NCBI GenBank assembly: GCA_039815185.1
Contig: JBCBZT010000002.1
Span: 1 to 64,000 of the forward strand
Source: Cyanobacteria bacterium P01_A01_bin.123
GTDB lineage: Bacteria; Cyanobacteriota; Cyanobacteriia; Phormidesmidales; Phormidesmidaceae
Direction of reading: 5' to 3'
DNA length: 64,000 nt
The notes under the pieces were generated by a model, which was not told the origin of the DNA, searched no databases, and saw only the letters and a program-made list of their open reading frames with translations. Shown here in pieces: positions 26,085 to 53,499 of this stretch; the stretch's first letter is position 1, and each line of letters starts with the position of its first letter. The position numbers and the translations under genes were made by a program.

Positions 26085-26804
26085 ATGATGTCTATGACTT
26101 TTTCTACCCTTGAATCAGGGAAGCTCACGATTGGGGCTAGTGATTTTGATGCCCGCCCAATGACCTATGTAGAAGATGGGCAACGCCTCGGCTACGAGAT
26201 AGATGTGGCGCGGGCCGTGTGCGCCAAATTAGCGCTAGACCCTGTGTGGATTAACCTGCCGATGATGGCTTTTTACACCACATTGCAGGCTGAAAAATGC
26301 GATGTAGTTTGGTTCAATCAGGCAATTACGCCAGAACGGCAAGGGCACAGTCGCTTCACTCGGCCTTACGGCCTGTTTGACGAGGCGATCATCGTCCGTG
26401 CTGATAGTGATATTCATTCAGCTGCGGACTTGAAAGGTCTAAAACTAGGCGGGTTGGCAGACAGCACCAATATTGAATTGGGAGAGCAGTTCGAGGGGGT
26501 AGAGTTGGTGCCGTTTCCGGGGAGTGATCAGGTCTTGCCTGAAATGCTGGCGGCGTTGCGAGCAGGCGAGATTGATGCCCTGGTCGATGATGAACTGGTG
26601 TTGATTACGGCGGCTGAGGCCGACCCAAGTTTGCGGATTGGGTTTACGGTGGAGACGCGCCATCCGTTTGCGATCGCGCTGCGACCTGATAGTGAACCTT
26701 TACTGAACACGCTGAATCAAACCCTAGACCAGCTAGAAGCCGACGGCACTCTAGGTAAGCTTTGGGAACAGTGGATTCCCTGGCGGCCCTTTCCGTTTGC
26801 GTAG
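26085..26804 (+). CDS. Family-3 (polar amino acid type) solute-binding-fold protein without a signal peptide
   Basis: GKLTIG, GYEIDVARAVC, AITPERQ..FTRPY, DGTLGKLWEQW; no hydrophobic leader. Confidence 0.85.
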   Translation: MMSMTFSTLESGKLTIGASDFDARPMTYVEDGQRLGYEIDVARAVCAKLALDPVWINLPMMAFYTTLQAEKCDVVWFNQAITPERQGHSRFTRPYGLFDEAIIVRADSDIHSAADLKGLKLGGLADSTNIELGEQFEGVELVPFPGSDQVLPEMLAALRAGEIDALVDDELVLITAAEADPSLRIGFTVETRHPFAIALRPDSEPLLNTLNQTLDQLEADGTLGKLWEQWIPWRPFPFA

Positions 26805-26872: not shown

Positions 26873-28744
26873 ATGCAAAATGTGCAGGTTCCATCTCCAA
26901 CCCAATCGTCTGAGCGCTATCCCGATGTGCCTGCACCGCTAGGCGAGGTCATGGCTGAATATCGCATTGAAGCGGCAACGGCGATCGCCTACCGAGTTAA
27001 AGCCGGACAATACATCCAGATCATGGATGTCGAGGGCACCCAGTGCTCTGATTTTTTGGCGTTTGCAGGCGACGACTACTCAGAAGAACTGGACAGCACG
27101 GTCACCCGCACGTTGCTCAACCAGGCCATGCCCCAGGCTGGACTGCACAGCAAATATTTTTCGCAGGCGATGCGACCATTGGTGGAGGTGATTCAAGATA
27201 CCTGCGATCGTCACGACAGCTTTCTACTCGCCTGCACTAACAAGTACTACGAAGATGCGGGCTATCCCGGACATCCCAGCTGTAGCGACAACTTCAATCA
27301 AGTCCTGGCTGCCTATGGCATTGCCCCCCGACCCGGCTGGCCAGCGGTGAACTTTTTCTTCAATACGGCTGTGGATGACAGTGGCAGTATTGTGTCGGCA
27401 GAATCATGGTCGCGACCGGGAGACTATGTGTTGCTCAAGGCCCATCAAGATTTGCTTTGCGCCAGTTCCGCCTGCCCGGATGATATTGACCCCGCCAATG
27501 GCTGGCGACCCACCCCCATTCATGTCCGCATTTATGGGGCTGAAGAACGATTCCCCAAGGCTATTGGACGTCGTGTTGCCACGGATTTGCCCCTGCGCCT
27601 CACTCAAGATAGCGCCTTTACCCCCCGCATTCGAGCGCTGACTCAAAACCTGGTGGAGTATAACGGCTTTTGGGTGCCTGTCAGCTATCGGCATCAGGGC
27701 GATCACGCGGAATACTGGGCGCTGCGAGAGCGGGTGGCGTTGATGGATCTTTCCGCCCTGCGAAAGTTTGAGGTGGTTGGCCCCAATGCGCTAGATCTGT
27801 TGCAGTGGACTTTCTCTCGTAATGTGGCCAAGTTGGATGTGGGTCAATCGGCCTATGGTTGTTTGCTGAATCCCCACGGCGGCATCATCGACGACGGCAT
27901 CGTCTTTCGGTTGGGGGAATTGGCCTATCGGTATGTGGGCAATTGCGACACGGATGGGTTGTGGTTGTGGGAAGTGGCTCAGGCAGAGGGGTTTGTGGTT
28001 GAGGTTGAACCGAGTAGCGATCGCGTCCATAACCTCGCCCTCCAAGGGCCATGCTCTCGCGACCTGCTGCGATCGCGGGTGGAACTTGATGCCGCATCGG
28101 GGCTGAATGACCTAAACGATCTGCAATACTTCCGCTTTGTTCAAGGAACCGTCAGCGGCATTCCCGTGATGATTTCTCGTACGGGCTACACGGGCGAGTT
28201 GGGCTATGAACTGTTTGTGCATCCCGATCGCGGGGCTGATTTATGGGATGCGCTGATTCAGGTGGGTGCTGCTTACGATCTGCTGCCGTTGGGGATGCAG
28301 GCCCTGGATCGGGCGCGAATTGAAGCGGGATTGCTTGCTGCGGGCAGAGAATTTAATGATTTGATTTCACCCTACCAGGCGGGTATCGGCTGGACGGTGG
28401 GGATGAAGACTAAGCCCGACTTTATCGGACGTGAGGCGTTAGAACAGTTGCGAGAACGCCCCCCGTTCGTAGCGGTGGGGCTCATGCTCAGGAGTAATGA
28501 GGTGGCCTGCGGTGGGCAGTGTGTGTATCCCGTGGGCGATCGCTGGCGGGTTGGCCATGTGACTAGCGGCACGTTTTCTCCTGTGTTGAATCGCAGTATT
28601 GCGATGGCCCAAGTCGCGCCAGAATATGCCCAGGATGGGATGGAGTTAGAGGTGGGGTTTATGGATGGTTTGAAGCGTCGGGTTAGGGCTCAGGTTGGGC
28701 CATTGTCGTTGTATGACCCGACGAAGAGTCGGGTTAGGGGTTAG
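26873..28744 (+). CDS. tdm: DUF1989 + GcvT-like protein; TMAO demethylase (Tdm)-like, shorter at the N-terminus
   Basis: DUF1989 domain with C121/H134/C137/C201; aminomethyltransferase domain with DLSALRKFEV, SRTGYTGELGYE and RARIEAGL. Confidence 0.78.
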   Translation: MQNVQVPSPTQSSERYPDVPAPLGEVMAEYRIEAATAIAYRVKAGQYIQIMDVEGTQCSDFLAFAGDDYSEELDSTVTRTLLNQAMPQAGLHSKYFSQAMRPLVEVIQDTCDRHDSFLLACTNKYYEDAGYPGHPSCSDNFNQVLAAYGIAPRPGWPAVNFFFNTAVDDSGSIVSAESWSRPGDYVLLKAHQDLLCASSACPDDIDPANGWRPTPIHVRIYGAEERFPKAIGRRVATDLPLRLTQDSAFTPRIRALTQNLVEYNGFWVPVSYRHQGDHAEYWALRERVALMDLSALRKFEVVGPNALDLLQWTFSRNVAKLDVGQSAYGCLLNPHGGIIDDGIVFRLGELAYRYVGNCDTDGLWLWEVAQAEGFVVEVEPSSDRVHNLALQGPCSRDLLRSRVELDAASGLNDLNDLQYFRFVQGTVSGIPVMISRTGYTGELGYELFVHPDRGADLWDALIQVGAAYDLLPLGMQALDRARIEAGLLAAGREFNDLISPYQAGIGWTVGMKTKPDFIGREALEQLRERPPFVAVGLMLRSNEVACGGQCVYPVGDRWRVGHVTSGTFSPVLNRSIAMAQVAPEYAQDGMELEVGFMDGLKRRVRAQVGPLSLYDPTKSRVRG

Positions 28745-28867
28745 GTTGGCAATACATTTCTGAGGTGTGTGTGGTGCTGCCTTCAACAAAGCTTGTAGCA
28801 ATCGCGATCGCACCGTCTTCTTCAATCGGATAGTAGCTGGATTTTGCCATCCGTGGATGTGGATGTA

Positions 28868-29093
28868 GGATAACACCCCTCTGGAGAGTGTTATCTATTA
28901 AAAACGCTGGATAACACACCAATTGCCAGGATTAACCATCACATCTGATGGACAACACCCCAAAATTGAAGCGTTACCTGCAAATTTTCTGTTTAATTTC
29001 TGGGAAATGGGGCGTTATCTCGCAGATCTGACATATAGCTGCGGGAAAGCGGTGTGTTATCGGGCAGATCTGACGTGGAACATATAGTTATGC
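28868..29093. repeat. Degenerate ~41-bp periodic array of GGATAACAC / GTGTTATC motifs
   Basis: GGA[T/C]AACAC at 28868, 28909, 28950; G[T/C]GTTA[T/C]C at 28888, 28971, 29012, 29054; GCAGATCTGAC at 29022 and 29064. Confidence 0.7.
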
Positions 29094-29364
29094 AACTTTA
29101 TCTGTTGGCAGGGACAGCAACTCAAACTGACCGATTTGCGTACATAACACATCATTCCTCCGAGCGTTTACTTATACCTGAAGGACTCATCATGTAACCG
29201 ATATTGAAAGTGGACTGCTCTGGAATCAAACCAGATCTTCTCCCTTTTTTATACATATTCTTTTCAGAAACGTGCATAGAGAAAGGAGGGGAGGGGGCTA
29301 CCATTACCCTAGCAATCCATCTATTATTGTATGCAAATAACACTAATAACGTCAAGAGCTGCAC

Positions 29365-30129
29365 ATGATAAAATCTTCGAAAAGTTACCACACCTTAAAA
29401 GAGCAGATTCAGTTGTCTGTTGATTTTGTGCTGCTATGTTGCCACTCAATGCCTGCTCTGAAGGGATATATTAAAGCTGTCGAAAAAGGAGGTGCAGAGA
29501 AAATACCCAACCCTGATATCTTCAAAAATACAGCAGAGTATGACAGACTGAAACAAATTATTCCTAATTACAGAAAAACCATAGGCCGCTTTCTTGTCTT
29601 GAGCTCATTTAGTTATTTTGAGTCTTATGTTTCAGATGTTATAGATGAGCTGTTTTTAATAAACGGTGGAGAAGCAGAGTTTTTGAAGATGGTAAAAGAC
29701 AAGCGAGATGATTACTTCGAAGTTATTGCTAGCCTCAATGAGAGAGCAAAGAAGCTCAGAGAAGAGAAAGATAAATCTAAAATCGAAAAGTACAGAAAGA
29801 TAATTGATGAGCTAACAAGATCAAATTACAAGTTTCCATCAGAGTTGCTTGCATTCTATGGAATTTTTCAACTTCAAGAAAAATTGATTAACATGAGAGC
29901 ATGTGATATTCCAGACATCATGGAAAATGCACTTGGCATTAAAATAGAAGAAGACGAAAGAACCGAATTCCATCGGATTAGAGAGCGAAGAAATGGTATA
30001 GCTCATGGAAAAATCACCGAAGTTGATTTATCAGAAGCCATTCAAATCAATAATTTTCTCAAAAACTTTGCTAAAAAAGTTGATCAGCACATAATTAGAA
30101 ATTTTTTTGTGATCGAGTCAGCCACTTGA
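29365..30129 (+). CDS. AT-rich hypothetical protein with a HEPN-like RxxxxH motif
   Basis: FSYFESYV near the N-terminus and RERRNGIAHG near the C-terminus; low GC. Confidence 0.65.
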   Translation: MIKSSKSYHTLKEQIQLSVDFVLLCCHSMPALKGYIKAVEKGGAEKIPNPDIFKNTAEYDRLKQIIPNYRKTIGRFLVLSSFSYFESYVSDVIDELFLINGGEAEFLKMVKDKRDDYFEVIASLNERAKKLREEKDKSKIEKYRKIIDELTRSNYKFPSELLAFYGIFQLQEKLINMRACDIPDIMENALGIKIEEDERTEFHRIRERRNGIAHGKITEVDLSEAIQINNFLKNFAKKVDQHIIRNFFVIESAT

Positions 30130-30147
30130 TTTTTGGTAATGTCATCC

Positions 30148-30234
30148 TCATAATAAATTGCTGCACCGGAATTTCGAAAGGTGGTCGCTTGCGTTGCGAA
30201 GGTCATTTACCTCCGCTGAGCTTGGTCGTTAGAT
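30148..30234 (+). other. attC-like recombination site 1
   Basis: TCATAAT...gctgcaccgga...tccgctgagc...GTTAGAT; 87-bp imperfect palindrome just after a stop codon. Confidence 0.6.
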
Positions 30235-30290
30235 GATGTGGCTAAGCAGAGGCAATATAAGCGTTCCAGAATCTGTGACGAACCATAAAT

Positions 30291-30683
30291 TTGAAGCAAA
30301 TGAACGAAGCAGAAAGAGAGGCGGGTCTTGCCGTAACGCCTGGTTATAGATACGCCGAGAAAGTGGGGAACCAGTTATTCGTTGCTGGCCAAGTTCCACA
30401 TAATAGAGACGGACAGCTGATCGGTATAGACAATCCCCACGCTCAATCGCGCCAGTGCTTGGACAATCTGCTCAAAATACTCGCAGTTCATGGCTACTCG
30501 GTCGCAGATATACGGCAGCTAGTTATTTACGTAGTAGGACAGCGCTCTAATCTTGTTCAAGCATGGACGGCTGTGGAGGAAAAGTTTAGTGAGGGAGTTC
30601 CACCTGCCACATTGCTTGGGGTCACAACATTGGGACACGAAGGGCAACTTGTAGAAATTGATGCGACAGTGATCAAAACGTAG
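30291..30683 (+). CDS. RidA/YjgF-family protein
   Basis: LFVAGQVP, PPATLLGV, LVEIDA. Confidence 0.85.
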   Translation: MKQMNEAEREAGLAVTPGYRYAEKVGNQLFVAGQVPHNRDGQLIGIDNPHAQSRQCLDNLLKILAVHGYSVADIRQLVIYVVGQRSNLVQAWTAVEEKFSEGVPPATLLGVTTLGHEGQLVEIDATVIKT

Positions 30684-30786
30684 TGCGATCGCGGATCTTG
30701 TAGTGTGTGTTGGCGGCAGCATAACGCGCCAACAAGCCTATAAAATACGATGGTGGTGCGTTAGCTTGGCGTTATCACCCTAATGG

Positions 30787-30873
30787 TGATAACACAGACG
30801 CTGTACCCGAACGTCGCAAGGCGTTGGTTGAGTTGCAAAAATTATCTGTATCCCGTGAGCGCGATCGTTAGAC
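30787..30873 (+). other. attC-like recombination site 2
   Basis: TGATAAC...cgctgtacccga...tcccgtgagcg...GTTAGAC; 87 bp and similar in sequence to site 1. Confidence 0.6.
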
Positions 30874-30920
30874 CGACATCCTTCCGGTAGAGGTTTGCTA
30901 CCATTAAATCAACAAACGGA

Positions 30921-31301
30921 GTGATGCTTATGGAACTGACGATTGTAACTGAGCCAACTCCTCTAAAACTAAATGAAGATGGCGTGGTTCTCGTCGGGAA
31001 CACTCGCGTCACATTGGATACTGTGGTTGATGCTTTTTTGGAAGGTGCCACAGCAGAAGAGATTGTCGAGCAATATCCATCGCTTCAACTTGCAGATGTG
31101 TATTCAGTAATTAGTTACTACCTGCGTCGAAAAGCCGAAGTTGATGCCTATCTAAAAATTCGGCAAGAGCGTGCCGCGCAAGTTCGGCAAGAAAACGAGC
31201 GTCGTTTCAATCCAATTGGAATCCGCGATCGGCTGATGGCGAGACTTGACCATCAAAGACAAGGTTCAAATGCTACGCCTTTTAGCGGACGAGAACTTTA
31301 A
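30921..31301 (+). CDS. DUF433 antitoxin-like protein
   Basis: VGNTRVTLDTVV, GATAEEIVEQYPSLQLADVYSVISYY. Confidence 0.85.
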   Translation: MMLMELTIVTEPTPLKLNEDGVVLVGNTRVTLDTVVDAFLEGATAEEIVEQYPSLQLADVYSVISYYLRRKAEVDAYLKIRQERAAQVRQENERRFNPIGIRDRLMARLDHQRQGSNATPFSGREL

Positions 31302-31623
31302 CAACCAAATTGTTAGGGGTATTCTTAGACGAAGATCTGATATTGATATTGTCAGAGTTCAAGATGTAGGTCTGTCTAAAACTGATGATCGGGTCATTCT
31401 GGAATGGGCAGCACAAAAGGGGCGAATTCTATTGACTCATGATGTGGAAACAATGACCCGATACGCCTACGAGCGCGTACAGGCAGAGTTAGCAATGCCG
31501 GGAGTCTTTGAGATTAGTCGCAGCGTGCCGATTGGGTTGGCGATTGAGGAGGTCATCTTGATCACGGAGGGAAGCTTTGAGGGCGAATGGGAAGGACAAG
31601 TGCAATATTTGCCTCTCCGTTAA
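31270..31623 (+). CDS. DUF5615 PIN-like toxin
   Basis: MLRLLADENF, DDRVILEWA, RILLTHD; overlaps the DUF433 gene. Confidence 0.85.
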   Translation: MLRLLADENFNNQIVRGILRRRSDIDIVRVQDVGLSKTDDRVILEWAAQKGRILLTHDVETMTRYAYERVQAELAMPGVFEISRSVPIGLAIEEVILITEGSFEGEWEGQVQYLPLR

Positions 31624-31661
31624 AGTCCTAGCTCAATCTAACCGAATGGCGAGGTGTTCTG

Positions 31662-31808
31662 ATGAGTCAAGCGAATTTTGATGCCATGAGTGGTGCTGAA
31701 TTGAAACAGTACTTTCTGGCGAATCGCCAAGATCAATCTGCTTTTCAGGCGTATTTGGATAGGTTCAGTAAAATGAACGCTATATCGTTGCAAGATGCAT
31801 CGGATTGA
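31662..31808 (+). CDS. DUF6887-like small protein, possibly truncated; not in the ORF track
   Basis: Manual translation MSQANFDAMSGAELKQYFLANRQDQSAFQAYLDRFSKMNAISLQDASD; GAGG upstream. Confidence 0.6.
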   Translation: MSQANFDAMSGAELKQYFLANRQDQSAFQAYLDRFSKMNAISLQDASD

Positions 31809-31868
31809 ACTCCCGTTATACTCAATAACTTCTGCGCTAAGATCGTGAAGAACTGTAACTGAACTAAC

Positions 31869-33311
31869 ATGGTGCAAGCAAACTTAGAGAAAAAAGCCTC
31901 TCTAGTCAAGGATTGGGCCAGAGGTTACGAATCGCAAGTTAATGAATATAGCTATTGGATCGACGAAATTGAAGGGATGATTCCCCCAGACCTTCAGGGG
32001 ACACTCTTTCGCAATGGTGCGGGAAGACTAGATGTTAACGGACAAAAGATTGGCCATCCTTTCGATGGAGATGGCATGGTCTGTGCCATCACGTTTAATC
32101 AAGGTCGTGCTCACTTCAAAAACCGATACGTCCGTACCGAAGGTTATCTCAAAGAACAAGCAGCCGGGAAAATCCTGTATCGAGGTTTTGGCACGCAAAA
32201 GCCTGGAGGATGGCTCGCCAATATTTTTGACACCAATTTCAAAAATGCAGCTAATACAAACGTTATTTATTGGGGCGGTAAATTATGGACGATGTGGGAA
32301 GGCGGTCAGCCTCACCAGCTCGTTCCTGAAACATTGGAAACTGTCGGTACGGATGACCTTGATGGTTTACTAGAGCCTAATCAACCCTTCTCAGCGCACC
32401 CCAAAATCATAGATAATCACTTTGTTAATTTTGGGGTTAGTGGCATTACATCTCAAACCTTAACTATCTTTGAGTTAGACGACCTTGGAAACAAATTAAA
32501 ACAGTACTCCCATTCCTTGACAGGGTTTGCATTTTTGCACGATATGCTAATTACGGATAATTACTGTATATTCATGCAACATCCCTTTCAGGTGAAAGGA
32601 TTACCGTTCCTCCTCGGATTTAAGACCATAGAGCAATGTTTTGACTTCAATCCCAAGCAACCGACCAAAATCATCGTGATTTCTCGTCATGGAAACCATG
32701 ATCTAGAGATATTAGAAACAGAATCTTTCTTCGGATTTCACCATGGCAATGCTTGGGAAAAAGATGGGAAAATCTATTTAGAGTCAATTTGTAGCCAATC
32801 TTTTCCTCAAAAGCAAGAAGCGGAGTTAGATTTTACAAAGATTGACTTTGATATTTTCCCTAAGGGAGAACTATGGGAGTTTGAGTTAGATTTAGCCAAA
32901 AAAACTGTAAATCGCCGAAAAATTGAAGAAAGAGGGTGTGAATTTCCTTCAGTGAATCCGATGTGGGTGGGAAAAGAACATCGTTATCTTTATATGAATG
33001 CCTGCGATAGTCCAACCGGAAATGGCCCCCTGCAAGCCATTCTGAAACTAGACAAAGGGTCAGGAGACCGTCAGTTATGGAACCCGCCCCCGAGGGGGTT
33101 TGCGGGCGAACCCATTTTTGTCCCTCGTCCTAACGGAATTGAAGAAGACGATGGATGGTTAATCTCATTGGTTTACGACGCCGAGACACATCGGTCTTAC
33201 GTTGTCATTTTAGATGCACAAAATCTTGATCAGGTGATTGCGAAGTTATATCTTGAGCACCATATTCCCCATGGATTTCACGGCAATTGGGCATCTAAAG
33301 TATTCGTTTAA
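31869..33311 (+). CDS. Carotenoid cleavage oxygenase (RPE65/ACO family)
   Basis: HPFDGDG, FSAHPK, FLHD, FHHGNA, HGFHG (Fe-binding histidines). Confidence 0.92.
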   Translation: MVQANLEKKASLVKDWARGYESQVNEYSYWIDEIEGMIPPDLQGTLFRNGAGRLDVNGQKIGHPFDGDGMVCAITFNQGRAHFKNRYVRTEGYLKEQAAGKILYRGFGTQKPGGWLANIFDTNFKNAANTNVIYWGGKLWTMWEGGQPHQLVPETLETVGTDDLDGLLEPNQPFSAHPKIIDNHFVNFGVSGITSQTLTIFELDDLGNKLKQYSHSLTGFAFLHDMLITDNYCIFMQHPFQVKGLPFLLGFKTIEQCFDFNPKQPTKIIVISRHGNHDLEILETESFFGFHHGNAWEKDGKIYLESICSQSFPQKQEAELDFTKIDFDIFPKGELWEFELDLAKKTVNRRKIEERGCEFPSVNPMWVGKEHRYLYMNACDSPTGNGPLQAILKLDKGSGDRQLWNPPPRGFAGEPIFVPRPNGIEEDDGWLISLVYDAETHRSYVVILDAQNLDQVIAKLYLEHHIPHGFHGNWASKVFV

Positions 33312-33335
33312 TCTACTGTGGTGGGATATGCTGAA

Positions 33336-33425
33336 ATCTAACAACGCTGTGTAAGGAATGCTTGATTAAAGTTTTCGGTTAAGCTGTTTTCAGCTGCTCA
33401 CATTCCTAATAGCTAGCTATTAGGT
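33336..33425 (+). other. Degenerate attC-like site 3
   Basis: ATCTAAC...gctgtgtaaggaatg...cattcctaatagc...ATTAGGT, starting 25 nt after the stop codon. Confidence 0.45.
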
Positions 33426-33440
33426 GCATTTACAAATGTC

Positions 33441-34052
33441 CTAGACCTGCAAAATACCCACTAACGTCATAACCAATAGTTCAATATCGGCGGGCACCTT
33501 GAACGATTGGATATCGCGGGTAATCATTTGCTGGGATTGATCTAGAGTGCCAAACACCCATAATTCACCAATAGTGACTGCGCCATAAATCAGATTCAGC
33601 TCCGGATTCACCTTAGCTAAGGCAATCATTTCAACCCCCAACTGGGTAAATCCTCGTGTTAAGTCATCGCGCTTGGCTTCGACGACTACCAGGTTGGTTG
33701 CAGATTGCATCAAATAATCCAAGGTGCCTTGCAAATAATCATCTACAGCAAGCGAATATTCAATTCTCAAGAGCGTCTGACAGGTGATCGCGACCCGCAT
33801 CAAAACTGGAGCCACCAAAGCCTCCCGTTTAGCGGCCTCGCTACTGAGGGTCACATAGGGAATCACGGCTTCAAGCTGCTGCTTCAAGTCAGAGAGGTGG
33901 GGAATGGCAGTTTGGCTGCGGGGCAACTCTAGATAAGCGCGCTGAAAGCGATAGCCAAACTCCGCTAAGATTTCGTCGGTATCGTAGGGCAGTTCAAAAT
34001 AAGAACGAAACGAATAGCGATTGCCCGCTTGCAGAATTTTAGGGTGAGCCAT
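33441..34052 (-). CDS. Cyanobacterial PD-(D/E)XK-like hypothetical protein
   Basis: GTLDYL...VVEAK...GFTQL...YGAVT. Confidence 0.65.
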   Translation of the reverse strand: MAHPKILQAGNRYSFRSYFELPYDTDEILAEFGYRFQRAYLELPRSQTAIPHLSDLKQQLEAVIPYVTLSSEAAKREALVAPVLMRVAITCQTLLRIEYSLAVDDYLQGTLDYLMQSATNLVVVEAKRDDLTRGFTQLGVEMIALAKVNPELNLIYGAVTIGELWVFGTLDQSQQMITRDIQSFKVPADIELLVMTLVGILQV

Positions 34053-34139
34053 GAGATTGCTGGGAAGGGAGTATGCTAAGGCTGATGGTTAGCGATCGCT
34101 CCTCTATCATAGAAGCCCTAATTCCACGCCATTAACCCA

Positions 34140-36953: not shown

Positions 36954-38312
36954 ATGCCCTCCCGTGTTGCCATTATTGGGGCTGGCCCCTGTGGTCTTTC
37001 CCAACTCCACGCCTTTGAACAGGCACGCCTGAAAGGTACCGAGATTCCTGAACTGGTGTGTTTTGAGAAGCAGGCGGGTTGGGGGGGCTTATGGAATTTT
37101 ACTTGGCGCACGGGGCTTGACGAGTATGGTCAACCCGTCCACGGCAGCATGTATCGCTACCTGTGGTCCAATGGCCCCAAAGAATGCCTTGAATTTGCTG
37201 ACTACACCTTTGAAGAGCACTTCGGGCAAGCGATTCCGTCCTTTCCCCCCCGCGAAGTGCTTTACGACTACATTGTCGGACGGGCTAAAAAGAACAAGCT
37301 AGAACGCTACATCCGCTTTAGCACCCCGGTTCGCTACATTGAATACCTTGAAGCCAGTGACACCTTCCGGGTGCGGGTCAAAGACCTCGAAGCTGATCAG
37401 GAATACACTGAAGAATTTGACCATGTCATTGTTGCCAGTGGGCATTTCTCAGTGCCCAATATGCCAGTCTTTGCAGGCATTGACCGCTTTCCGGGTCGCG
37501 TGCTCCACAGCCACGATTTCCGGGAAGCTCGGGAGTTTACCGGGCGCGATCTACTAGTGGTGGGCGGTAGCTACTCTGCAGAAGATATTGCGCTGCAAAG
37601 CTACAAGTACGGGGCTCGCTCGGTCACGATCAGCTACCGGACGGCACCCATGGGGTTCGAGTGGCCAGAGGGAATCAAAGAAGTGCCGCTGATGACCTAT
37701 CTAGACGGTAAAACTGCCCACTTCAAAGATGGCAGCAGCCAAGACGTAGACGCGATCGTGCTCTGTGTGGGCTACCAGCATAGCTTCCCCTTTTTAGAAG
37801 ACAGCCTCCGGTTGAAAACTAAGAACCGCCTGTACCCAGGGTCACTCTACAAAGGCATCTTCTGGGAACCCAATCCCAAGCTGATGTATCTGGGCATGCA
37901 AGATCAGTTCTACACCTTCTCAATGTTTGATGTGCAGTCCTGGTATGCCCGCGATGTGGTGTTAGGCCGCATTGCGCTGCCGGATACAACCGCTATGGCA
38001 AAAGATATCGCCCTTTGGCAGCAGCGCGAAGAAGCTTTGCAGGATGCCTTTGAGCAAATTGATTTCCAAAAGGACTATGTGGTTGATCTGGCTGACTGCG
38101 TTGACTATGCCCCCTGTGACTGGAATATGACGGTCGATTTGTTCAAGGAGTGGGAGCACGATAAAGAACACAGCATCCTGGGCTATCGTGATAAGGCATT
38201 CCCGTCTGCCTGCACGGGTACAAAAGCGCCTGTCCACCACACGCCGTGGATTGAAGCGATGGATGATTCGATGGCCTGCTTCTTAAGCAAACAGCCCGCT
38301 AGCGTATCCTAA
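36954..38312 (+). CDS. tmm: Bacterial flavin-containing monooxygenase, trimethylamine monooxygenase (Tmm/mFMO) type
   Basis: GAGPCG, WGGLWNFTWRTGLD, HGSMYRYLWSNGPKECLEFADY, FMO motif FPGRVLHSHDF, GGSYSAEDI. Confidence 0.85.
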   Translation: MPSRVAIIGAGPCGLSQLHAFEQARLKGTEIPELVCFEKQAGWGGLWNFTWRTGLDEYGQPVHGSMYRYLWSNGPKECLEFADYTFEEHFGQAIPSFPPREVLYDYIVGRAKKNKLERYIRFSTPVRYIEYLEASDTFRVRVKDLEADQEYTEEFDHVIVASGHFSVPNMPVFAGIDRFPGRVLHSHDFREAREFTGRDLLVVGGSYSAEDIALQSYKYGARSVTISYRTAPMGFEWPEGIKEVPLMTYLDGKTAHFKDGSSQDVDAIVLCVGYQHSFPFLEDSLRLKTKNRLYPGSLYKGIFWEPNPKLMYLGMQDQFYTFSMFDVQSWYARDVVLGRIALPDTTAMAKDIALWQQREEALQDAFEQIDFQKDYVVDLADCVDYAPCDWNMTVDLFKEWEHDKEHSILGYRDKAFPSACTGTKAPVHHTPWIEAMDDSMACFLSKQPASVS

Positions 38313-38393: not shown

Positions 38394-39188
38394 GTGTCTG
38401 TTGTTGGCAAGATTGAAAGCATCTGGCGTTATCCCGTCAAAAGCATGTGCGGGGAAGAACTGGAGGAAGCCTTTGTCTCCTTTGCAGGGGTGATGGGCGA
38501 TCGCGTTTATGGCTTCCTTAAAAGCAACGGCAATCCCGGTTTCCCTTGGCATACCGCCCGCGACCAAGAATCGCTGCTGCTGTACAAGCCCCGATTCAAA
38601 AATGCGAGTCTGACGATCAAGCCTGAAAATCTGGCAGCGGCGCAAGATATGGGTCCAGGCATTAATCCGGTCTATCCAGAAACAGCGCAATTTGCAGTCG
38701 AGGTTGAAACCCCAGACGGTGAGGTTTACAGCGTCGAGGATGAGGCTTTTGTAGCGCATCTCAAGACAGTAACGAATAACGAAACCCTAAAGCTGCACTT
38801 CACCCAACGGAGCCAGTTTGACTGCCGCCCACTCACCCTATTTTCACTACAGTTGGGTGAACTGTTGAGTGAAGAGTTGGGCATCACCCTTGATAAGCGA
38901 CGGTTTCGGTCTAACCTTTACGTGAATTGGAGCGGTGATAAGCCGAAGCTTTATGAAAAAGAGCTAATCGGGAAACGCCTAAAGATTGGGGACATGCTAG
39001 AAGTGAGTTTGCTAGAGCGTGACCCCAGATGCAAAATGATCACCCTTGATCCAGACACCTCTGAGGCAAATCCTGAGGTGATTAAGCATGTCTCGAAGGC
39101 TCACGAAGGCTATGCCGGGGTCTATGGTGCAGTGCTGGTTGAGGGTGTGGTGAAAACAGGGGATGCGATCGAGCTTTTGGATGATTAA
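38394..39188 (+). CDS. MOSC-domain (mARC/YcbX-like) molybdenum-cofactor protein
   Basis: IWRYPVKSMCGE, GDR, RRFRSNL, PRCKMITLDP. Confidence 0.88.
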   Translation: MSVVGKIESIWRYPVKSMCGEELEEAFVSFAGVMGDRVYGFLKSNGNPGFPWHTARDQESLLLYKPRFKNASLTIKPENLAAAQDMGPGINPVYPETAQFAVEVETPDGEVYSVEDEAFVAHLKTVTNNETLKLHFTQRSQFDCRPLTLFSLQLGELLSEELGITLDKRRFRSNLYVNWSGDKPKLYEKELIGKRLKIGDMLEVSLLERDPRCKMITLDPDTSEANPEVIKHVSKAHEGYAGVYGAVLVEGVVKTGDAIELLDD

Positions 39189-43449: not shown

Positions 43450-44952
43450 GTGACTGTAGCGATTTCCAAACCCGAAACCCTCACAGACTTAGAAGCCTAC
43501 GTAAGCCAGTCAGAACGGGCTGAGCTGGTGAAACAGGTACGGGCCAAAATTGATCAACTGGGCATTCAATACATCTACTACCAGTTCGTTTCTGTCACCG
43601 GGCGGATCACGGGTAAAGGGGTTCCGGCGTCTCACTGGGAAAGCATTGCCGAGCGTGGAATCCAGCTCGTCTATGGGGCAATGGCAAACCTGTTTTTAGA
43701 TCGCTACGGTAACTACATTGGCTATGGGCCAGAAGCGTCAGAACTGGTTGCGATTCCTGACCCAGATACTTTTTGCCAACTGCCCTGGGATAAGCGTGTG
43801 GCGCGGGTGTTTTGCACCTGCTTCCGCAACCGGGAGGAGCCTGAAAATCCTGGCGGGTATCTGACTGCCGATTGCCGGGGCAATCTGCGTCGTATCCACG
43901 CCCAGTTTCAAGCAGACCATAACGGCCTCCATTTGCGCCACGGCACCGAACCCGAAATGATGTGGTTGAAGAAGGGGGCAGATGGCAAACCCGACGGCGG
44001 GGCGACCCATCCCTACTGCTATCACATCGACCAGTTTGAGCAACTGCGTCCGGTGGTGTTGAAGGTGATTGAGTACTGCAACGCCATGGGCCTAGACATG
44101 ATCCAGGGCGATCATGAAGATGCACCCGGTCAGCTCGAACTAAACTTTATGTTCGATAATGCCCTACGCACTGCCGATCGATTAACTACGTATCGCCAAA
44201 TTTGCTCCCAGGTAGCGCGGGAGTTTGGGCTAATAGCTTGCTTTATGTCTAAGCCGTTTATGGGCCTCTCTGCAAATGGTTGCCACCACAACCTATCGCT
44301 TTGGTACGGTGGTGAAGACAAGGTAGAAACCTTAGGGCAAGACTCACTCCCAGGCATGGAAGGCACGTTCAGCTATCGTAAGGGGGGTGAAAACACCTTC
44401 TTGCCTGACCCGGAGTTGAGCAAGACGAAACCTGGCCCTATTGGTCTCCAGTCCATTGGCGGGGTGATTGAGCACTTGGGTGCCCTGACTGCCATTGGTT
44501 GCTCTACTGTTAACTCTTACCGCCGCCTGTGGGATACGGGCTTATGGGCTCCCGTCTATGCCGACTGGGGTTTTCAAAACCGGACGTGCGGGCTACGGGT
44601 GTCGGCCCCAGGGCGGTTTGAATACCGGGCGGTGGACTCGATGGTGAATCCGTATTTGATGGCGTCTGCCATCCTCAAAGCCTTTGACGACGGCATCAAG
44701 CGCAACCTGGATCCGGGTGAACCGGAAGAGCGCAATCTTTACGAAGCCATGGAGGCGGGTAAGCAAGTGAAGAAGCTGCCCATGTCCCTAGGCGATGCCC
44801 TGGCTCGTTTAGAAGAAGACGAGGTGATTCAGTCGGCGATGCCGGAGGATATGTACCGGATCTTTGCCTGGTACAAGCGGGATGAGTGGGAGAAGTTTTT
44901 GGCGACCGTGACGGATTGGGATACAGATATGTATCTGGATTGCTTGCCTTAG
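43450..44952 (+). CDS. Glutamine-synthetase-like protein, probable gamma-glutamyl-amine ligase
   Basis: GTEPE, HEDAPGQLE, NGCHHNLS, NSYRRL, NRT, FEYR; the flap reads WAP instead of EAP and there is no DGSS. Confidence 0.85.
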   Translation: MTVAISKPETLTDLEAYVSQSERAELVKQVRAKIDQLGIQYIYYQFVSVTGRITGKGVPASHWESIAERGIQLVYGAMANLFLDRYGNYIGYGPEASELVAIPDPDTFCQLPWDKRVARVFCTCFRNREEPENPGGYLTADCRGNLRRIHAQFQADHNGLHLRHGTEPEMMWLKKGADGKPDGGATHPYCYHIDQFEQLRPVVLKVIEYCNAMGLDMIQGDHEDAPGQLELNFMFDNALRTADRLTTYRQICSQVAREFGLIACFMSKPFMGLSANGCHHNLSLWYGGEDKVETLGQDSLPGMEGTFSYRKGGENTFLPDPELSKTKPGPIGLQSIGGVIEHLGALTAIGCSTVNSYRRLWDTGLWAPVYADWGFQNRTCGLRVSAPGRFEYRAVDSMVNPYLMASAILKAFDDGIKRNLDPGEPEERNLYEAMEAGKQVKKLPMSLGDALARLEEDEVIQSAMPEDMYRIFAWYKRDEWEKFLATVTDWDTDMYLDCLP

Positions 44953-45059: not shown

Positions 45060-47042
45060 ATGTCTTGGATTCCCTGTGTACGTGGCTGGTTTATTTCCCT
45101 TTGTCTGCTGATCACTGTATTTATTGCAGGCTCAGGTTCAGCCTGGGCTGCTGCCTCACATCCCATGGATGCCCTCAGCCCTGCGGAATATAAGACCGCG
45201 CTTGGCATCTTAAAAGATGAGGGGCTGGTCAACGAAGACAGCCGCTACCCGTTTATTCAGCTCCAGCCACCCCCTAAAGCTGCCATGCTGGATTGGCAAC
45301 CAGGGGAACCTTTTGAACGTTCAGCTTTTGCCATGGTTAAGCAAGGGCCTGAGGTTTATGAGGCGGTGGTAAATCTAACGCGACGGGAAGTGTCGCGTTG
45401 GGAAGCGATCGCGGATGTACAAGCGGGCATCCTCTTAAGCGAATGGACGGGGGCTCAAGACATCACGCTGGCCGATCCGGCGTGGCAGGCGGCGGTTAAA
45501 AAACGGGGCATTGAAGCGGCTGACTATGGGGGCATTGTTTGTGCGCCCCTGACTGCAGGCTATTATGACCTGCCAGAAGAAGCAGGGCGGCGCTTATTTA
45601 AGGTCAACTGCTTTGATGGGCGGGATACGGAAAACTTTTGGGGTCGTCCGATTGAAGGCATCACGGCAGTCGTCGATATCGATGCGGGTCGGGTAATCAA
45701 GCTGGTGGATACGGGCGTTGTGCCGATGCCCACCGCATCTGCTGGATATACCGAAGCAGAAGTTACTCAGCAGAGCGCGCCCAAACCCCTGGACTGGACA
45801 GAAGCTAAGGGTCATGACTACACCTTTAACGGGCAAGTGGTGGATTGGCACAACTGGCAGTTCCATGTGCGCCTGGATTCGCGGGTGGGGCCGATTTTTT
45901 CCCTAGTAAAGTACAACGATCACGACAACTGGCGATCGGTAATGTACGAGGGGTCGCTGTCGGAGCTGTTTGTGCCCTACCAAAGCAGCGACCCCAACTG
46001 GTATTTCCGCACCTATATGGATGCGGGGGAATATGGGGCAGGGAAGTTGGCGGTGCCGCTGGAGCGCGATCGCGATTGTCCTTCCACTGCGGTGTATCTG
46101 GATGCAGTATTTGCCGATGACAGGGGGCAACCCTATACCCAAGCCGATGCCGCCTGCATCTTTGAACGCTATGGCGGCGACCCGGTGTGGCGACATACGG
46201 ATGCTCTGGTAGGTAAGTCGGCTAGCCGTCGCGATCGCGAATTGGTGGTTCGCTTCGTCACGGTCATTGGCAACTATGACTATCTGTTTGACTGGTCTTT
46301 TGGCGAAAACGGCACGCTCAAAGTGCGCTTTGGGGCCAGCGGGATGGAAGAGGTGCAGGCGGTTCCGGCGATGCGCGTTGACGGTGAAGCGATGACGAGT
46401 GAAGCCTTTGGTCGCATGGTTGCCCCCCAAACCCTAGCTGTCAACCACGACCACTTCTTTAGCTTCCGCCTCGACATGGACGTAGACGGGCCAGACAACA
46501 GCTTCGTTTGTGACGACCTCAAAACTGTTGCGGTCAAAGCAAGTCCCCGTACCAGTCTCTGGACCGTTGACTCTCACACGGCCAAAACCGAATCGGAAGC
46601 CCAGATGCGGCTGAATATTCGTGAACCTGCCCTGTGGCGAGTGGTCAATCCCCATGCGGAGAATTTTGTGGGCTATCCCACTAGCTACGAGTTCAAATCC
46701 CACGGTAATGCCATGTCGCTAATGCAGCCCGACGACTATCCTCAGCAGCGGGCAGGCTTTACCAACTATCACCTGTGGGTAACGCCCTACGCAGCAGATG
46801 AACGCTATGCGGCGGGCAATTATCCCAACCAAAGCCATGGCGGCGATGGGCTACCCGCTTGGACGGGGCAGGATCGTCCGATTGAAGATACGGATATTGT
46901 GGTTTGGTACACGCTGGGGTTACACCATGTGGTGCGGGCAGAAGATTGGCCGGTGTTGCCAACGGAATGGCACGAATTTGAAGTGCGGCCTTTTGACTTT
47001 TTTGATGGGAATCCAGCGTTGGAGATTTCGTCTAAAAGTTAG
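45060..47042 (+). CDS. Secreted copper/TPQ primary-amine oxidase (TynA/MaoA family)
   Basis: Signal peptide ending SAWA; HPMDAL; catalytic Asp in YMDAGEYG; TPQ consensus NYDY; Cu ligands in HDH and LHH. Confidence 0.92.
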   Translation: MSWIPCVRGWFISLCLLITVFIAGSGSAWAAASHPMDALSPAEYKTALGILKDEGLVNEDSRYPFIQLQPPPKAAMLDWQPGEPFERSAFAMVKQGPEVYEAVVNLTRREVSRWEAIADVQAGILLSEWTGAQDITLADPAWQAAVKKRGIEAADYGGIVCAPLTAGYYDLPEEAGRRLFKVNCFDGRDTENFWGRPIEGITAVVDIDAGRVIKLVDTGVVPMPTASAGYTEAEVTQQSAPKPLDWTEAKGHDYTFNGQVVDWHNWQFHVRLDSRVGPIFSLVKYNDHDNWRSVMYEGSLSELFVPYQSSDPNWYFRTYMDAGEYGAGKLAVPLERDRDCPSTAVYLDAVFADDRGQPYTQADAACIFERYGGDPVWRHTDALVGKSASRRDRELVVRFVTVIGNYDYLFDWSFGENGTLKVRFGASGMEEVQAVPAMRVDGEAMTSEAFGRMVAPQTLAVNHDHFFSFRLDMDVDGPDNSFVCDDLKTVAVKASPRTSLWTVDSHTAKTESEAQMRLNIREPALWRVVNPHAENFVGYPTSYEFKSHGNAMSLMQPDDYPQQRAGFTNYHLWVTPYAADERYAAGNYPNQSHGGDGLPAWTGQDRPIEDTDIVVWYTLGLHHVVRAEDWPVLPTEWHEFEVRPFDFFDGNPALEISSKS

Positions 47043-47739: not shown

Positions 47740-49881
47740 ATGGTCAACGTCGTTCGAGGCGATGTCGCTAAACCAGTTTCATCTAAAAGGCTAGCCGAAT
47801 ACTTTGAAGCCAGAGTTGATATTGATGGCAGCCTATACATGGGATATCCAATTATAGGAACTCCGCAAGGAGGCTATCAAATCGACGCTCTTTTAATATC
47901 AAGAGAACACGGCGTCGTTATTTTTAACTTGGTAGAAGGTATTGAAAGTGATGTTGATATAGAAGAGGTACAGGATGAGAGTATAACTAAAATTCAATCG
48001 AAGCTCCTTCAACATAAGGCACTGACTAGTAGAAGAAGGCTAATGGTTGAAATCAATGTTGTCACTTATGCACCGGCTTTAAGTCATAAGCCAAGTATCT
48101 CCGAAGATTATCATGTGCTCATCAATGAGAATGAGTTAGCAGAGTATCTCAATTCTCAGAGTTGGGAACATGATGAATATTTTGAGAAGCTTAATTCAGT
48201 AATTCAAGCCATTACCTCTATCAGAAAAAGAAAACAGAGGAACTATGTACAACAGGAGAATTCTCGAGGTGCAAAGTTAAGCAGATTAGAGGATTCAATA
48301 GCAAATTTAGACAGGAATCAGAGTGCTGCTGTAATTGAAACTGTAGAGGGAGTACAAAGAATTAGAGGGCTTGCAGGCTCAGGAAAAACTATTGTTCTAG
48401 CTCTCAAGGTTGCATATTTACATGCAAAGCATCCTGATTGGAATATAGCTGTAACTTTTAATACTCGCTCGCTTAAAGGTCAGTTCAAACAGCTAATTAA
48501 TACATTTACTATTGAACATACTAGCGAGGAACCAGATTGGGAAAAGGTAAAAATCATACATGCTTGGGGTAGTCCTTCCAAGGATGGAATTTATTATGAA
48601 TTTTGTAAGAGACATAATGTAGAATATCGAGATCTCAGCAGAGCCAGAAAAATCGCTAACTCATATGGTCAGGAGTTTGATGCTGTTTGCGAGGAATCCC
48701 TCAGTAAAGTATCAGAATTTGAACAATATTATGATGCGATTTTGATTGATGAAGCACAAGATTTCTCCAAACACTTCCTAAGGCTTTGCTATGAAATTCT
48801 CACAGAACCAAAGAGGCTAGTGTATGCCTATGATGAATTGCAAAGCTTAAATAAAAAAGTAATGGAATCGCCAGAGTCTATTTTTGGTGATGACTCTTAT
48901 GGTAATCCTCGTGTTCTATTGCAGAATCGTATTGGTGAACCTAAACAAGACATTATCTTAGAGAAATGCTATAGAAATTCCCGCCCAATTTTAGTCTCTG
49001 CTCATTCTCTTGGCTTTGGGATATATAGGGACGATGGGCTGGTTCAGATGTTTGAATACTCTGGTTTGTGGAGAGATATTGGCTACGAGGTTGAAGAAGG
49101 AAATTTAGAAGACAATAGTTCTGTAAAACTTGCTAGAAACGAGAATACAAGCCCAAGATTTCTCGAAACTCATTCCTCAATAGAGGACTTAATTATATTT
49201 AAGTCATTTGATACTGATGGTGATCAAATTGAATGGCTTGTTAACCAGATAGACACAAATTTGAAGCAAGATGAGTTAAAGTATGACGACATAATGGTCA
49301 TACATACAAATCCATTGACAGCCAGAAAAGCCCTAGGAGTTGCTAGAGAAGCTCTTTTTGACAAAGGCATTAACTCCAGCTTAGCCGGAGTAACGACTTC
49401 ACCCGATGAATTTTTCAATGAAAATTCCATCGTTTTCACTAGTATCAACAGAGCCAAAGGTAACGAAGCTGCAATGATTTATGTGATTAATGCACAATTA
49501 TGCTTTTCTGGTTTTGAGCTTGCGAGAAAGAGAAATATTCTATTCACTGCAATGACTCGAAGCAAGGCTTGGTTGAGAGTTGTCGGACATGGTGAGAGCA
49601 TGAAAAGCTTAGTGCATGAATATGAAAAAGTAAAACAAAAGAATTTTACTCTCGATTTCCTATATCCCAGCGAATCAGAACGAAGGAGAATGAATCTTGT
49701 TAATAGAGATATGAGTCCTAGAGAACGTGAACTTCTGAAAGACAGGAGTAAGCAGGATAATTTCAAGGAAGTACTTGAGGCTCTTGTGCAAGGTGAAATC
49801 CATCTTGAAGACTTACCTTCTGATGTTCAAGAGAGTTTGAAGAAATTTGCAACCAATCAGCCTGAGACCAAAAGTGACTAA
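47740..49881 (+). CDS. SF1 (UvrD-like) helicase with an N-terminal NERD-like domain
   Basis: GLAGSGKT, IDEAQD, CYRNS, RAKGNE, FTAMTRSK; low GC. Confidence 0.88.
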   Translation: MVNVVRGDVAKPVSSKRLAEYFEARVDIDGSLYMGYPIIGTPQGGYQIDALLISREHGVVIFNLVEGIESDVDIEEVQDESITKIQSKLLQHKALTSRRRLMVEINVVTYAPALSHKPSISEDYHVLINENELAEYLNSQSWEHDEYFEKLNSVIQAITSIRKRKQRNYVQQENSRGAKLSRLEDSIANLDRNQSAAVIETVEGVQRIRGLAGSGKTIVLALKVAYLHAKHPDWNIAVTFNTRSLKGQFKQLINTFTIEHTSEEPDWEKVKIIHAWGSPSKDGIYYEFCKRHNVEYRDLSRARKIANSYGQEFDAVCEESLSKVSEFEQYYDAILIDEAQDFSKHFLRLCYEILTEPKRLVYAYDELQSLNKKVMESPESIFGDDSYGNPRVLLQNRIGEPKQDIILEKCYRNSRPILVSAHSLGFGIYRDDGLVQMFEYSGLWRDIGYEVEEGNLEDNSSVKLARNENTSPRFLETHSSIEDLIIFKSFDTDGDQIEWLVNQIDTNLKQDELKYDDIMVIHTNPLTARKALGVAREALFDKGINSSLAGVTTSPDEFFNENSIVFTSINRAKGNEAAMIYVINAQLCFSGFELARKRNILFTAMTRSKAWLRVVGHGESMKSLVHEYEKVKQKNFTLDFLYPSESERRRMNLVNRDMSPRERELLKDRSKQDNFKEVLEALVQGEIHLEDLPSDVQESLKKFATNQPETKSD

Positions 49882-49918
49882 CATATTAATAAGTAGAATG
49901 ATACATAACTATTCTGTT

Positions 49919-50040
49919 AAGAGCACCTCGAAAATAAATTTGGACTCCAAAACCGATAGCTGAAATCCTTTAATTCTCGTTGATGATTCTCAATCATGAG
50001 AGCTTATTCTCAATGACCTTGAATTAATCGAGGTGCTCTT
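49919..50040. mobile_element. MITE-like 122-bp element
   Basis: Perfect 13-bp terminal inverted repeats aagagcacctcga / tcgaggtgctctt; non-coding interior. Confidence 0.6.
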
Positions 50041-50199
50041 CAGATAATTAATTCTCATTAAGTTCAAAAAAAATGCGCTGCTTTCGAAAGCAGCTTCTTT
50101 TATGTATTCTATGAAAATGTTATATATCTATTTAAGATACTGCTGTTTGGATCTAGAGTTTGAGCAGTGGCAGCAATTTCACAATGAATCATTTTAGCT

Positions 50200-50865
50200 A
50201 TGCTAGACCATCTCGGCATTCATAATCAGGTGAGTACAATTACTCAGAAGTTGATATCTATTAACTTGTCAGTTAAACAAAAGTTTCCTTCATGTACGAC
50301 AACGGGAAGAGATAGCTACAAAATCTCATATTCGGGCATGCAGGATATTTCGATAGCTCTTAAAAATGTTGAGTATAAGGAAATATATGAAGAGTTAGAT
50401 GAAGATGAAAATTACAATATAAAAATGATTGATGGGGCACTAATACAACTCTTATATACTTACAAAGACTCTACCTTAGCTTCACATCGGCTAGCCTTCT
50501 TTCCATCTCCTTTTTTACACGACTTTCAGAATGAACCTGAAATATATGAGGAAGATGAAATATATGCAGATATAATAGCTAAAAATGTACTACCTGTTCC
50601 TGTCAGATTTGATTTTGATTATGATCCAAAAAAACACGTAGAGTTAGACCATCCTAAATGCCATTTAACTTTGGGACAGTTTAAGAACTGTAGAATCCCT
50701 GTGTGTTCTCCGATCACTCCAAATGCATTTATAGATTTTATTCTTCGCAGTTTTTACAATACTGCATTTCAAAAATTTACTGACCAATTAAATTTCTCTA
50801 GTAATTTATTTGATGAGACTATTACTTCTACAGAAAAGAAGCTAATACATTTAGCTATTTCTTAA
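50200..50865 (+). CDS. DUF2290-family protein
   Basis: MIDGALIQL, HRLAFFPSP, PVRFDFD, HPKCHLTLGQFKNCRIPV; follows the helicase. Confidence 0.8.
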   Translation: MLDHLGIHNQVSTITQKLISINLSVKQKFPSCTTTGRDSYKISYSGMQDISIALKNVEYKEIYEELDEDENYNIKMIDGALIQLLYTYKDSTLASHRLAFFPSPFLHDFQNEPEIYEEDEIYADIIAKNVLPVPVRFDFDYDPKKHVELDHPKCHLTLGQFKNCRIPVCSPITPNAFIDFILRSFYNTAFQKFTDQLNFSSNLFDETITSTEKKLIHLAIS

Positions 50866-53297: not shown

Positions 53298-53499
53298 CTC
53301 ACATACCTCTTGCAAAACACACAGCGGTGGCTAGAGGTTGGGTGATCTACAGCAGTCTTAACGTAAAATCACCCTACAAACTGACCCGTTAGCACTGACG
53401 CGATCTCAACCCTTAAAGGATTGAAATCAAAAGCTCCCAACCCTTTAAAAGGTCAGGAGCTAGGATGCGATCGTTCGTCGTTTCGGTTAATCAAACCTA

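Follow-up and report, generated by a model that had tools for sequence, protein, structure and literature searches.

Can an enzyme of the trimethylamine N-oxide (TMAO) demethylase family, Tdm, dispense with its N-terminal domain (NTD), and does such a shortened form act alone or with a partner? This question is raised by an open reading frame (ORF) at positions 26873-28744 of the stretch studied here (the window), which comprises the first 64,000 nucleotides of contig JBCBZT010000002.1 of Cyanobacteria bacterium P01_A01_bin.123, a genome assembled to 99.99% completeness with 5.99% contamination. Its gene content, which includes phycocyanin and pilus genes, marks the window as cyanobacterial. 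In the described enzymes, Tdm performs a zinc-dependent cleavage of TMAO to dimethylamine and formaldehyde, and the latter is transferred to tetrahydrofolate (THF) (PMC13619132, PMC12560246). Judged by its sequence, the ORF encodes a Tdm, P0001, and we consider it highly probable that this protein has TMAO demethylase activity. A combined picture, in which a zinc TMAO demethylase has lost its NTD and works with a separately encoded SoxG-like protein, is the reading that we favour, with about an even chance of being correct.

Architecture and active site of the short Tdm

P0001 joins a DUF1989 core to a GcvT folate-binding domain, an architecture already proposed in a preliminary description of the locus and borne out by the Pfam matches (DUF1989 at residues 31-195, GCV_T at 252-508, GCV_T_C at 535-615), by the alignment to the Tdm of Paracoccus sp. 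DMF (Paracoccus TDM) and by the AF2 model (pLDDT 90.6, pTM 0.86). The NCBIfam Tdm profile NF053776 matches residues 11-622 with profile positions 148-762 of 763 (E 2.7e-251), and residues 16-622 align to positions 176-786 of Paracoccus TDM (PDB 9Q59/9Q5A, E 1.5e-191). Equivalence of residues was established from their spacing, from this profile, and from alignment to 9Q59 and to 9Q5A, the D220A/D367A chain.

All of the residues listed in the preliminary description (C121, H134, C137, C201, F117, W156 and W179) were found at the positions given, and the numbers given there for Methylocella silvestris Tdm, C263/H276/C279/C343, agree with the published residues C263, H276, C279, C343, D346 and D198 (PMC12560246). 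The proposed constant offset of +142 applies to C263/H276/C279/C343/D346, equivalent to C121/H134/C137/C201/D204, but not to D198, which corresponds to D60 at +138, on the other side of a 4-residue gap in the alignment of P0001 to Paracoccus TDM. In the latter enzyme, C285/C301/C365, D220, F327 and D367 (PMC13619132) align to C121/C137/C201, D60, F163 and D203, and F117, W156 and W179 align to F, W and W. Altogether, the zinc and active-site residues reported for Tdm are all kept in P0001 (C121/C137/C201, D60, H134, F163, D203, D204). Among 113 short forms, C121, C137, C201, D60, H134, F117, W156 and D203 are invariant, and position 163 is always F or Y. The folate-site residues R480/F582/F672/K782 of Paracoccus TDM (PMC13619132) correspond to R316/F420/W507/K618, as counted from the alignment, with the position of F672 occupied by W, a conservative change, in 113/113 short forms.

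Compared with Paracoccus TDM (PDB 9Q59/9Q5L/9Q5A), P0001 thus conserves the zinc cysteines and the equivalents of D220, F327, D367, R480, F582 and K782. It differs in lacking the NTD, in a diverged GcvT half and in the W at the position of F672, whereas the Paracoccus enzyme is a single-gene protein of 787 aa with a 150-aa NTD and a 2 + 2 half assembly that has peripheral THF-binding domains (PMC13619132). With the Tdm of M. silvestris BL2 (NF053776), P0001 shares the metal-site spacing at +142 and the DUF1989-GcvT architecture; unlike P0001, that enzyme has a third, DUF1989-like domain (PMC12560246). The DUF1989 fold is also found in the urea-carboxylase-associated proteins UAAP1/UAAP2 (CgdAB), with a role in guanidine breakdown, and in 3ORU/3SIY (TM 0.77 by target to 3SIY, and weak profile matches), but these proteins have no GcvT fusion and P0001 scores far below their cut-offs (108 vs 285; 80 vs 206). 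By its sequence, the core of P0001 belongs with Tdm, yet two stated features of the family, the NTD and a score above the NCBIfam cut-off, do not hold for it.

Loss of the N-terminal domain

The third domain of Tdm is cysteine-free and has been called ubiquitous among Tdm homologues (PMC12560246), and deletion of residues 1-150 or 151-158 led to severe aggregation of Paracoccus TDM, for whose solubility and assembly the domain is reported to be required (PMC13619132). Relative to the described enzymes, P0001 is shorter by 138 aa (M. silvestris, 761 aa) and 164 aa (Paracoccus, 787 aa). No longer start is possible, because an in-frame TAA is situated two codons before the ATG of the 624-codon open frame at 26873. 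The possibility of a split gene was ruled out, since a profile built from 32 NTDs matched only the Tdm core in the six-frame translated genome (E 4e-6; next match E 3.2) and a PF09347 search of the genome found a single locus. The absence of the NTD is therefore a genuine loss, neither a miscalled start nor a split gene. The alignment of the 32 NTDs matches the catalytic core (hhalign probability 96), which makes the NTD a decayed duplicate of that core.

When distinct frames with a stop at their upstream end were compared, an NTD match was found in 0 of 44 from the cyanobacterial clade and in 48 of 49 others, in a count that omits 5 open-ended frames, accepts scores as weak as 9 bits and uses a profile to which 12 of the long loci contributed. 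As an NTD is present in nearly all other lineages and, in a shrunken form, in P0106, the 720-aa Tdm of Leptolyngbya sp. FACHB-261 (WP_190803452), loss is the parsimonious explanation wherever the root lies.

Distribution of the short forms and uneven divergence

A search with residues 1-240 of P0001 gave 5914 homologues, of which the best 120 range in length from 351 to 720 aa and, where an organism is named, come from cyanobacteria. In 112 of 113 aligned near-full-length homologues, P20 is preceded by no more than 39 residues; the exception is P0106, with 117. Its N-terminal extension matches the start of the NTD (hhalign probability 88 over 32 columns), so the protein seems to carry a shrunken NTD of about 110 aa and could possibly represent an intermediate; a search for relatives of this extension matched only P0106 itself. 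In the family of the source genome, tdm occurs in 71 of 150 sampled genomes and 13 of 19 sampled genera, and across the phylum in 3 of 400, all three with the short form. The short form also exists outside the cyanobacteria, on a metagenomic contig of other origin (L100, 64% GC), where an ACAD-like gene (1-1100) and a flavin reductase precede a Tdm of ~645 aa without NTD (1097-3034). This single contig probably records an independent loss. A further candidate for a second short lineage, P0133 (625 aa, 40% identity), was rejected, being marked as partial at the source and located on a 2.8-kb contig.

The cyanobacterial Tdm sequences, P0106 among them, group in a single clade with a long stem, in trees built on thinned subsets of 84 rows (SH-aLRT 100, length 0.76) and 29 rows (100/100, length 0.64). 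Divergence along the protein is uneven. Core identity is 54.6% between short and long forms and 56.5% among long forms, whereas in the GcvT half the corresponding values are 44-45% and 58-60%. All 21 clade-diagnostic substitutions (113 short and 53 long sequences) fall within residues 250-602 and none in the core, 19-225. A tree of GcvT domains rooted on other GcvT-like proteins, in which one intended outgroup row fell among the Tdm domains, has the clade branching outside the 21 other Tdm domains in the sample (100/98). The core tree, with one distant outgroup, recovers the clade (99/100) within a polytomy of long Tdm cores. These placements are compatible with fast evolution, with a domain swap or with long-branch attraction. 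The position of P0106 also varies: it lies in a polytomy in the 84- and 29-row trees, and in the GcvT tree its sister is P0113 (97/83). Remodelling of the GcvT half follows the clade and not the loss of the NTD, since P0106, with its shrunken NTD, has all 21 clade states and the NTD-less L100 protein has 1 of 21. The idea that the 21 substitutions represent a return to the GcvT consensus was unsupported as a general trend: an outgroup that included Tdm-related GcvT proteins sided with the long forms at 14 sites and with the short forms at 5.

An orphan protein accompanying tdm

Clustering of the neighbours at 53 tdm loci, a set with some genomes represented twice and several loci ending a short way from tdm, revealed a family of ~175-aa orphan proteins at 40 of them, in 32 cases at most 60 bp from tdm or overlapping it. 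Its member in the window, P0271, is located 5.4 kb from tdm, a gene that it adjoins in most relatives. A homology search found 154 homologues, and those named among the 120 listed are cyanobacterial. In the same 150 family genomes, the orphan is present in 69/71 with tdm and in 6/79 without. Three of these six have a 3′ fragment of tdm beside the orphan at a contig edge, where the assembly breaks through tdm, another holds a broken copy, and the remaining two gave no DUF1989 match. The orphan is kept even where it lies far from tdm (G014, G019), and its co-occurrence with tdm (Jaccard 0.90) exceeds that of the ACAD-like (0.68), SBP-fold (0.59) and tmm (0.18) genes. Purifying selection is evident from dN/dS values of 0.09-0.23 in 9 of 11 pairs, the other 2 being saturated. 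Invariant residues of the orphan are W27, D28, N73, R75 and W149. In the phylum sample it occurs in the 3 genomes with tdm, and in G161 and G152. The G161 locus is itself a remnant (L219:1501-1980), where a decayed 3′ piece of tdm is fused in frame to a piece of the orphan. A free-standing orphan was looked for in 5 long-form genomes and in the long-form loci, and none was found.

The AF2 model of P0271 (pLDDT 94.2) resembles GcvT-fold proteins such as 1WSR (Z 13.4, rmsd 3.7, 164 residues aligned) and 2GAG_A (Z 13.8, rmsd 5.3, 168 aligned), and also SoxG chains; the Atlas gives SoxG and GCV_T clusters as leads. At the profile level, P0271 aligns to Tdm residues 288-467 (hhalign probability 94.7); the alignment is gapped at the D340/D341 segment, and the C-terminal barrel is absent. 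We infer that P0271 is a non-catalytic half-GcvT protein; in GcvT, the aspartate pair activates THF. Like SoxG (2GAG_C, 1VRQ_C; Foldseek TM 0.63 by query), the non-catalytic gamma subunit of sarcosine oxidase, it is half of a GcvT fold standing alone, and the two proteins are similar in size. However, the two share 12% identity, P0271 is linked to tdm, no SoxB-type gene over cut-off was found in the genome, and GcvT domains of larger proteins are closer structural matches than SoxG. The SoxG model PF04268 did not match any of 120 orphan members, and in the genome search it matched neither this genome nor any control genome. Derivation of the orphan from the GcvT domain of Tdm itself was considered and is not established: the best locus score is indeed to Tdm (L094, E 3.5e-9), but the scores overlap, with maxima of 17.1 for short Tdm, 12.0 for long Tdm and 16.2 for other GcvT-like proteins.

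The near-perfect co-occurrence of the orphan with tdm, together with the remodelled GcvT half, suggests that the enzyme may be encoded by two genes instead of being a stand-alone minimal one. On genomic grounds, we lean slightly towards the orphan being a physical subunit of Tdm. It is probably not a simple replacement of the NTD, since the two are unrelated, P0106 shows all 21 clade states alongside what is left of its NTD, and the L100 protein lacks the NTD and has only 1 of them. To liken the orphan to the peripheral half-subunits that bind THF in the Paracoccus assembly is speculation. Of the earlier proposal that P0001 is a true Tdm shorter by about 140 N-terminal residues and hence a naturally minimal form, the first part holds at the level of sequence, given the equivalence of residues, the conserved clade, the absence of a free NTD gene and a tmm gene 8 kb downstream, while minimality has become doubtful in view of the orphan and the remodelled GcvT half.

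The methylated-amine island

The features of the window related to tdm are collected in Table 1. The genes of the lower-GC stretch that separates tdm from the orphan appear to be insertions, and other inserts occupy the same site in the relatives L036, L038 and L046.

Table 1. Features of the tdm island, with positions in the window
Feature	Position	Strand	Remarks
SBP_bac_3-fold protein	26085..26804	+	Island member; no evident signal peptide (N-termini by eye)
Short-form Tdm, P0001, 623 aa	26873..28744	+	DUF1989 core ~19-225 and GcvT ~245-622; no N-terminal DUF1989-like domain
Lower-GC stretch between tdm and orphan	28745..34139		HEPN protein, RidA-like, DUF433/DUF5615 pair, carotenoid oxygenase, 203-aa ORF
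Orphan, P0271, 176 aa	34140..34670	+	SoxG-like half of GcvT fold, candidate accessory subunit (fold, co-occurrence, adjacency); no Pfam/NCBIfam match
Trimethylamine monooxygenase, Tmm	36954..38312	+	NF058570, 787.5 bits vs cut-off 675
MOSC-domain protein	38394..39188	+	Follows tmm in several relatives
Glutamine-synthetase-like protein	43450..44952	+	Recurrent island member; TIGR03105, 317 vs cut-off 469.6
Copper amine oxidase	45060..47042	+	Relatives directly upstream of tdm in ACAD-type island

The context of tdm is one of methylated-amine genes, with tmm, glutamine-synthetase-like, amine oxidase and Amt-like neighbours, and two types of island can be distinguished. The type found in the window has the order SBP-tdm-orphan-tmm-(MOSC)-glutamine-synthetase-like. 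In the other, glutamine-synthetase-like and SBP-fold genes are divergent from PhyH, ACAD-like, copper amine oxidase, tdm, orphan and Amt-like genes. Tmm is the likely source of TMAO in this genome. In the family, tmm is present in 16/150 genomes and the ACAD-like gene in 55/150, with both in only 2/150; either one is carried by 63 of the 71 genomes with tdm. The ACAD-like flavoprotein is linked to tdm and 79-92% identical across its 55 genomes (L191:5889-7334 and relatives; L058-L063, L073), and homologues with 67-70% identity precede an ordinary long Tdm in Labrys. Almost mutually exclusive with tmm, it is a candidate for an alternative trimethylamine oxygenase.

For the later steps, the copper amine oxidase is a candidate that could release ammonia from methylamine. 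The glutamine-synthetase-like protein of the island cannot be equated with GmaS, as it scores below the TIGR03105 cut-off; two genes over that cut-off are located elsewhere in the genome. A lone gene resembling the alpha subunit of heme-dependent oxidative N-demethylase (HODM), with no evident partner subunits nearby, lies on another contig (L166:1441-2349, C108), and such genes occur in 20/150 family genomes. The upstream SBP-fold protein, considered earlier as a specific partner of Tdm, did not prove to be one: its gene occurs in 114/150 genomes, comprising 69/71 with tdm and 45/79 without, and it belongs to the wider amine island. Members of this SBP_bac_3-fold family have no evident adjacent ABC genes, are usually situated beside PhyH-type and glutamine-synthetase-like genes, and are possibly cytoplasmic binding proteins or enzymes. 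Two transport-related observations concern the surroundings of the island: a conserved membrane protein of 145-150 aa without NCBIfam match directly follows its Amt-like transporter (L056:7084-7527 and relatives), and a sodium:solute symporter at 51795-53315 of the window is a possible amine uptake system.

Proposed mechanism and alternative explanations

According to the explanation that we favour, a cyanobacterial lineage would have lost the non-catalytic N-terminal DUF1989 duplicate of Tdm. In P0001, TMAO would bind at the three-cysteine zinc site C121/C137/C201 with D60, F163 and D203, and would be cleaved to dimethylamine and formaldehyde, the latter being captured on THF by the GcvT domain; these steps are transferred from the Paracoccus and Methylocella enzymes because their residues are conserved. 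TMAO would be supplied by Tmm here and probably by the ACAD-like flavoprotein in most relatives, and the SoxG-like protein, on genomic evidence, probably stabilises or assembles Tdm at its remodelled GcvT half. The purpose would probably be nitrogen scavenging from methylated amines. In its widest and more tentative form, this proposal describes a cyanobacterial two-gene TMAO demethylase that discarded the NTD, remodelled its folate domain or swapped it from a sister lineage, and recruited a SoxG-like half-GcvT subunit; in combination with Tmm, or with a two-component ACAD-fold amine oxygenase as yet undescribed, it might allow about half of one mat/biofilm-type family to use methylated amines directly.

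Several observations weigh against the favoured explanation. P0001 scores 836.4 bits on NF053776, under the cut-off of 1100, compared with 861.6 for P0106, 1043.5 for the L100 short form and 1213.5 for the long P0122. P0106 and L100 separate NTD loss from GcvT remodelling, and on L100 no orphan was found in the 3.8 kb downstream of the short Tdm, which shows that the NTD can be lost without an orphan next to tdm. The orphan is not a displaced NTD either, as the two are not homologous (hhalign probability 0.2). Orphans without tdm occur in G070 and G110, where DUF1989 was searched for and not found, and in G152 (100% complete), with a divergent orphan and no DUF1989 gene found. Conversely, no orphan was found by profile in G057 (99% complete) and in G012, which have tdm. 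The co-occurrence of the two genes is among kin and may come from a single operon acquisition. Finally, only 13/71 genomes with tdm carry tmm and 13/71 a HODM (DmmA-like) gene, and the fate of dimethylamine is unexplained.

Some of these points would be expected if the two-domain protein were soluble and active by itself, with a co-inherited orphan acting elsewhere, in folate or formaldehyde handling or on another island enzyme. The L100 protein without adjacent orphan, the occurrence of one gene without the other in G057 and G152, and an AF2 monomer that folds confidently, although it is silent on solubility, all agree with such a stand-alone enzyme. We nevertheless find it rather unlikely: no other island gene tested follows tdm as closely as the orphan, which is retained even when unlinked and has a fold that matches the remodelled part of Tdm, and, for the known enzymes, NTD deletion aggregates Paracoccus TDM (PMC13619132) and the isolated halves of M. 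silvestris Tdm are inactive (PMC12560246). It is also conceivable that the clade applies the same chemistry to another amine N-oxide, which the ACAD-like flavoprotein or the PhyH-type dioxygenase would make, and feeds the glutamine-synthetase-like gamma-glutamylation genes of the island. In favour of another substrate are the absence of tmm from 58/71 genomes with tdm, the lack of an identified complete dimethylamine or N-methylglutamate route in the source genome, the PhyH, glutamine-synthetase-like, aldehyde and alcohol dehydrogenase genes of the island, and the long stem of the clade (0.64-0.76). We judge it improbable, since the catalytic core shows normal divergence without any clade-diagnostic change, a Tmm over cut-off is encoded near tdm here and in relatives, and the ACAD-like gene precedes an ordinary long Tdm in Labrys as well.

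A truncated, decaying or misannotated gene, whether a pseudogene, a split gene or one with a wrong start, could be suspected from the low NCBIfam score and from the non-viability of the engineered NTD deletion in Paracoccus TDM (PMC13619132). This reading is already refuted by the conservation data: dN is far below dS, the gene is present in 13/19 sampled genera, and 112/113 homologues begin no more than 39 residues before P20, in addition to the in-frame stop just upstream and the lack of an NTD gene in the genome.

More than 100 natural NTD-less sequences offer a direct test of the role of the NTD and of how formaldehyde channelling survives its loss, with P0106 (shrunken NTD) and L100 (probable independent loss) as controls. 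The chemistry of TMAO demethylase is itself already known. The candidate partner is an unannotated family without a Pfam model, and, if the two-gene reading is true, cyanobacteria would use methylated amines directly, a role assigned to heterotrophs in the papers found. A literature search over titles and the beginnings of abstracts, with subscription papers largely outside its coverage, found no paper on short or cyanobacterial Tdm, and the available part of a description of the standard TMAO pathway does not mention cyanobacteria (PMC13390433). Since the short forms score too low for the NCBIfam cut-off and bear the generic label "DUF1989 domain-containing protein", TMAO catabolism in cyanobacteria is easy to miss. 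The question is testable, as the cultured Synechococcus sp. PCC 7335 has both the short Tdm, WP_083785076, and the orphan, S7335_5044, on record.

Further observations

Other architectures were met among the homologues. A 949-aa Tdm homologue with an expanded N-terminus, P0125, belongs to the chytrid fungus Gonapodya prolifera and represents a eukaryotic Tdm-like gene. Tdm frames with 921 and 489 upstream residues and no Pfam match there are found at L080:1169-5806 and L099:2224-5565, respectively, the latter extension looking like open-frame carry-over in GC-rich DNA. Three GcvT-only proteins of 372-427 aa (P0162, P0176, P0182) have their best score on the Tdm profile and could be stand-alone Tdm-type folate domains or gene fragments, while P0207 and P0232 are fusions of HemD (uroporphyrinogen-III synthase) with GcvT, of ~650 aa. 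Within the window, positions 47740-50865 hold a low-GC (37-40%) segment with a 713-aa helicase-like ORF and a 221-aa ORF, by eye a defence-type insert.

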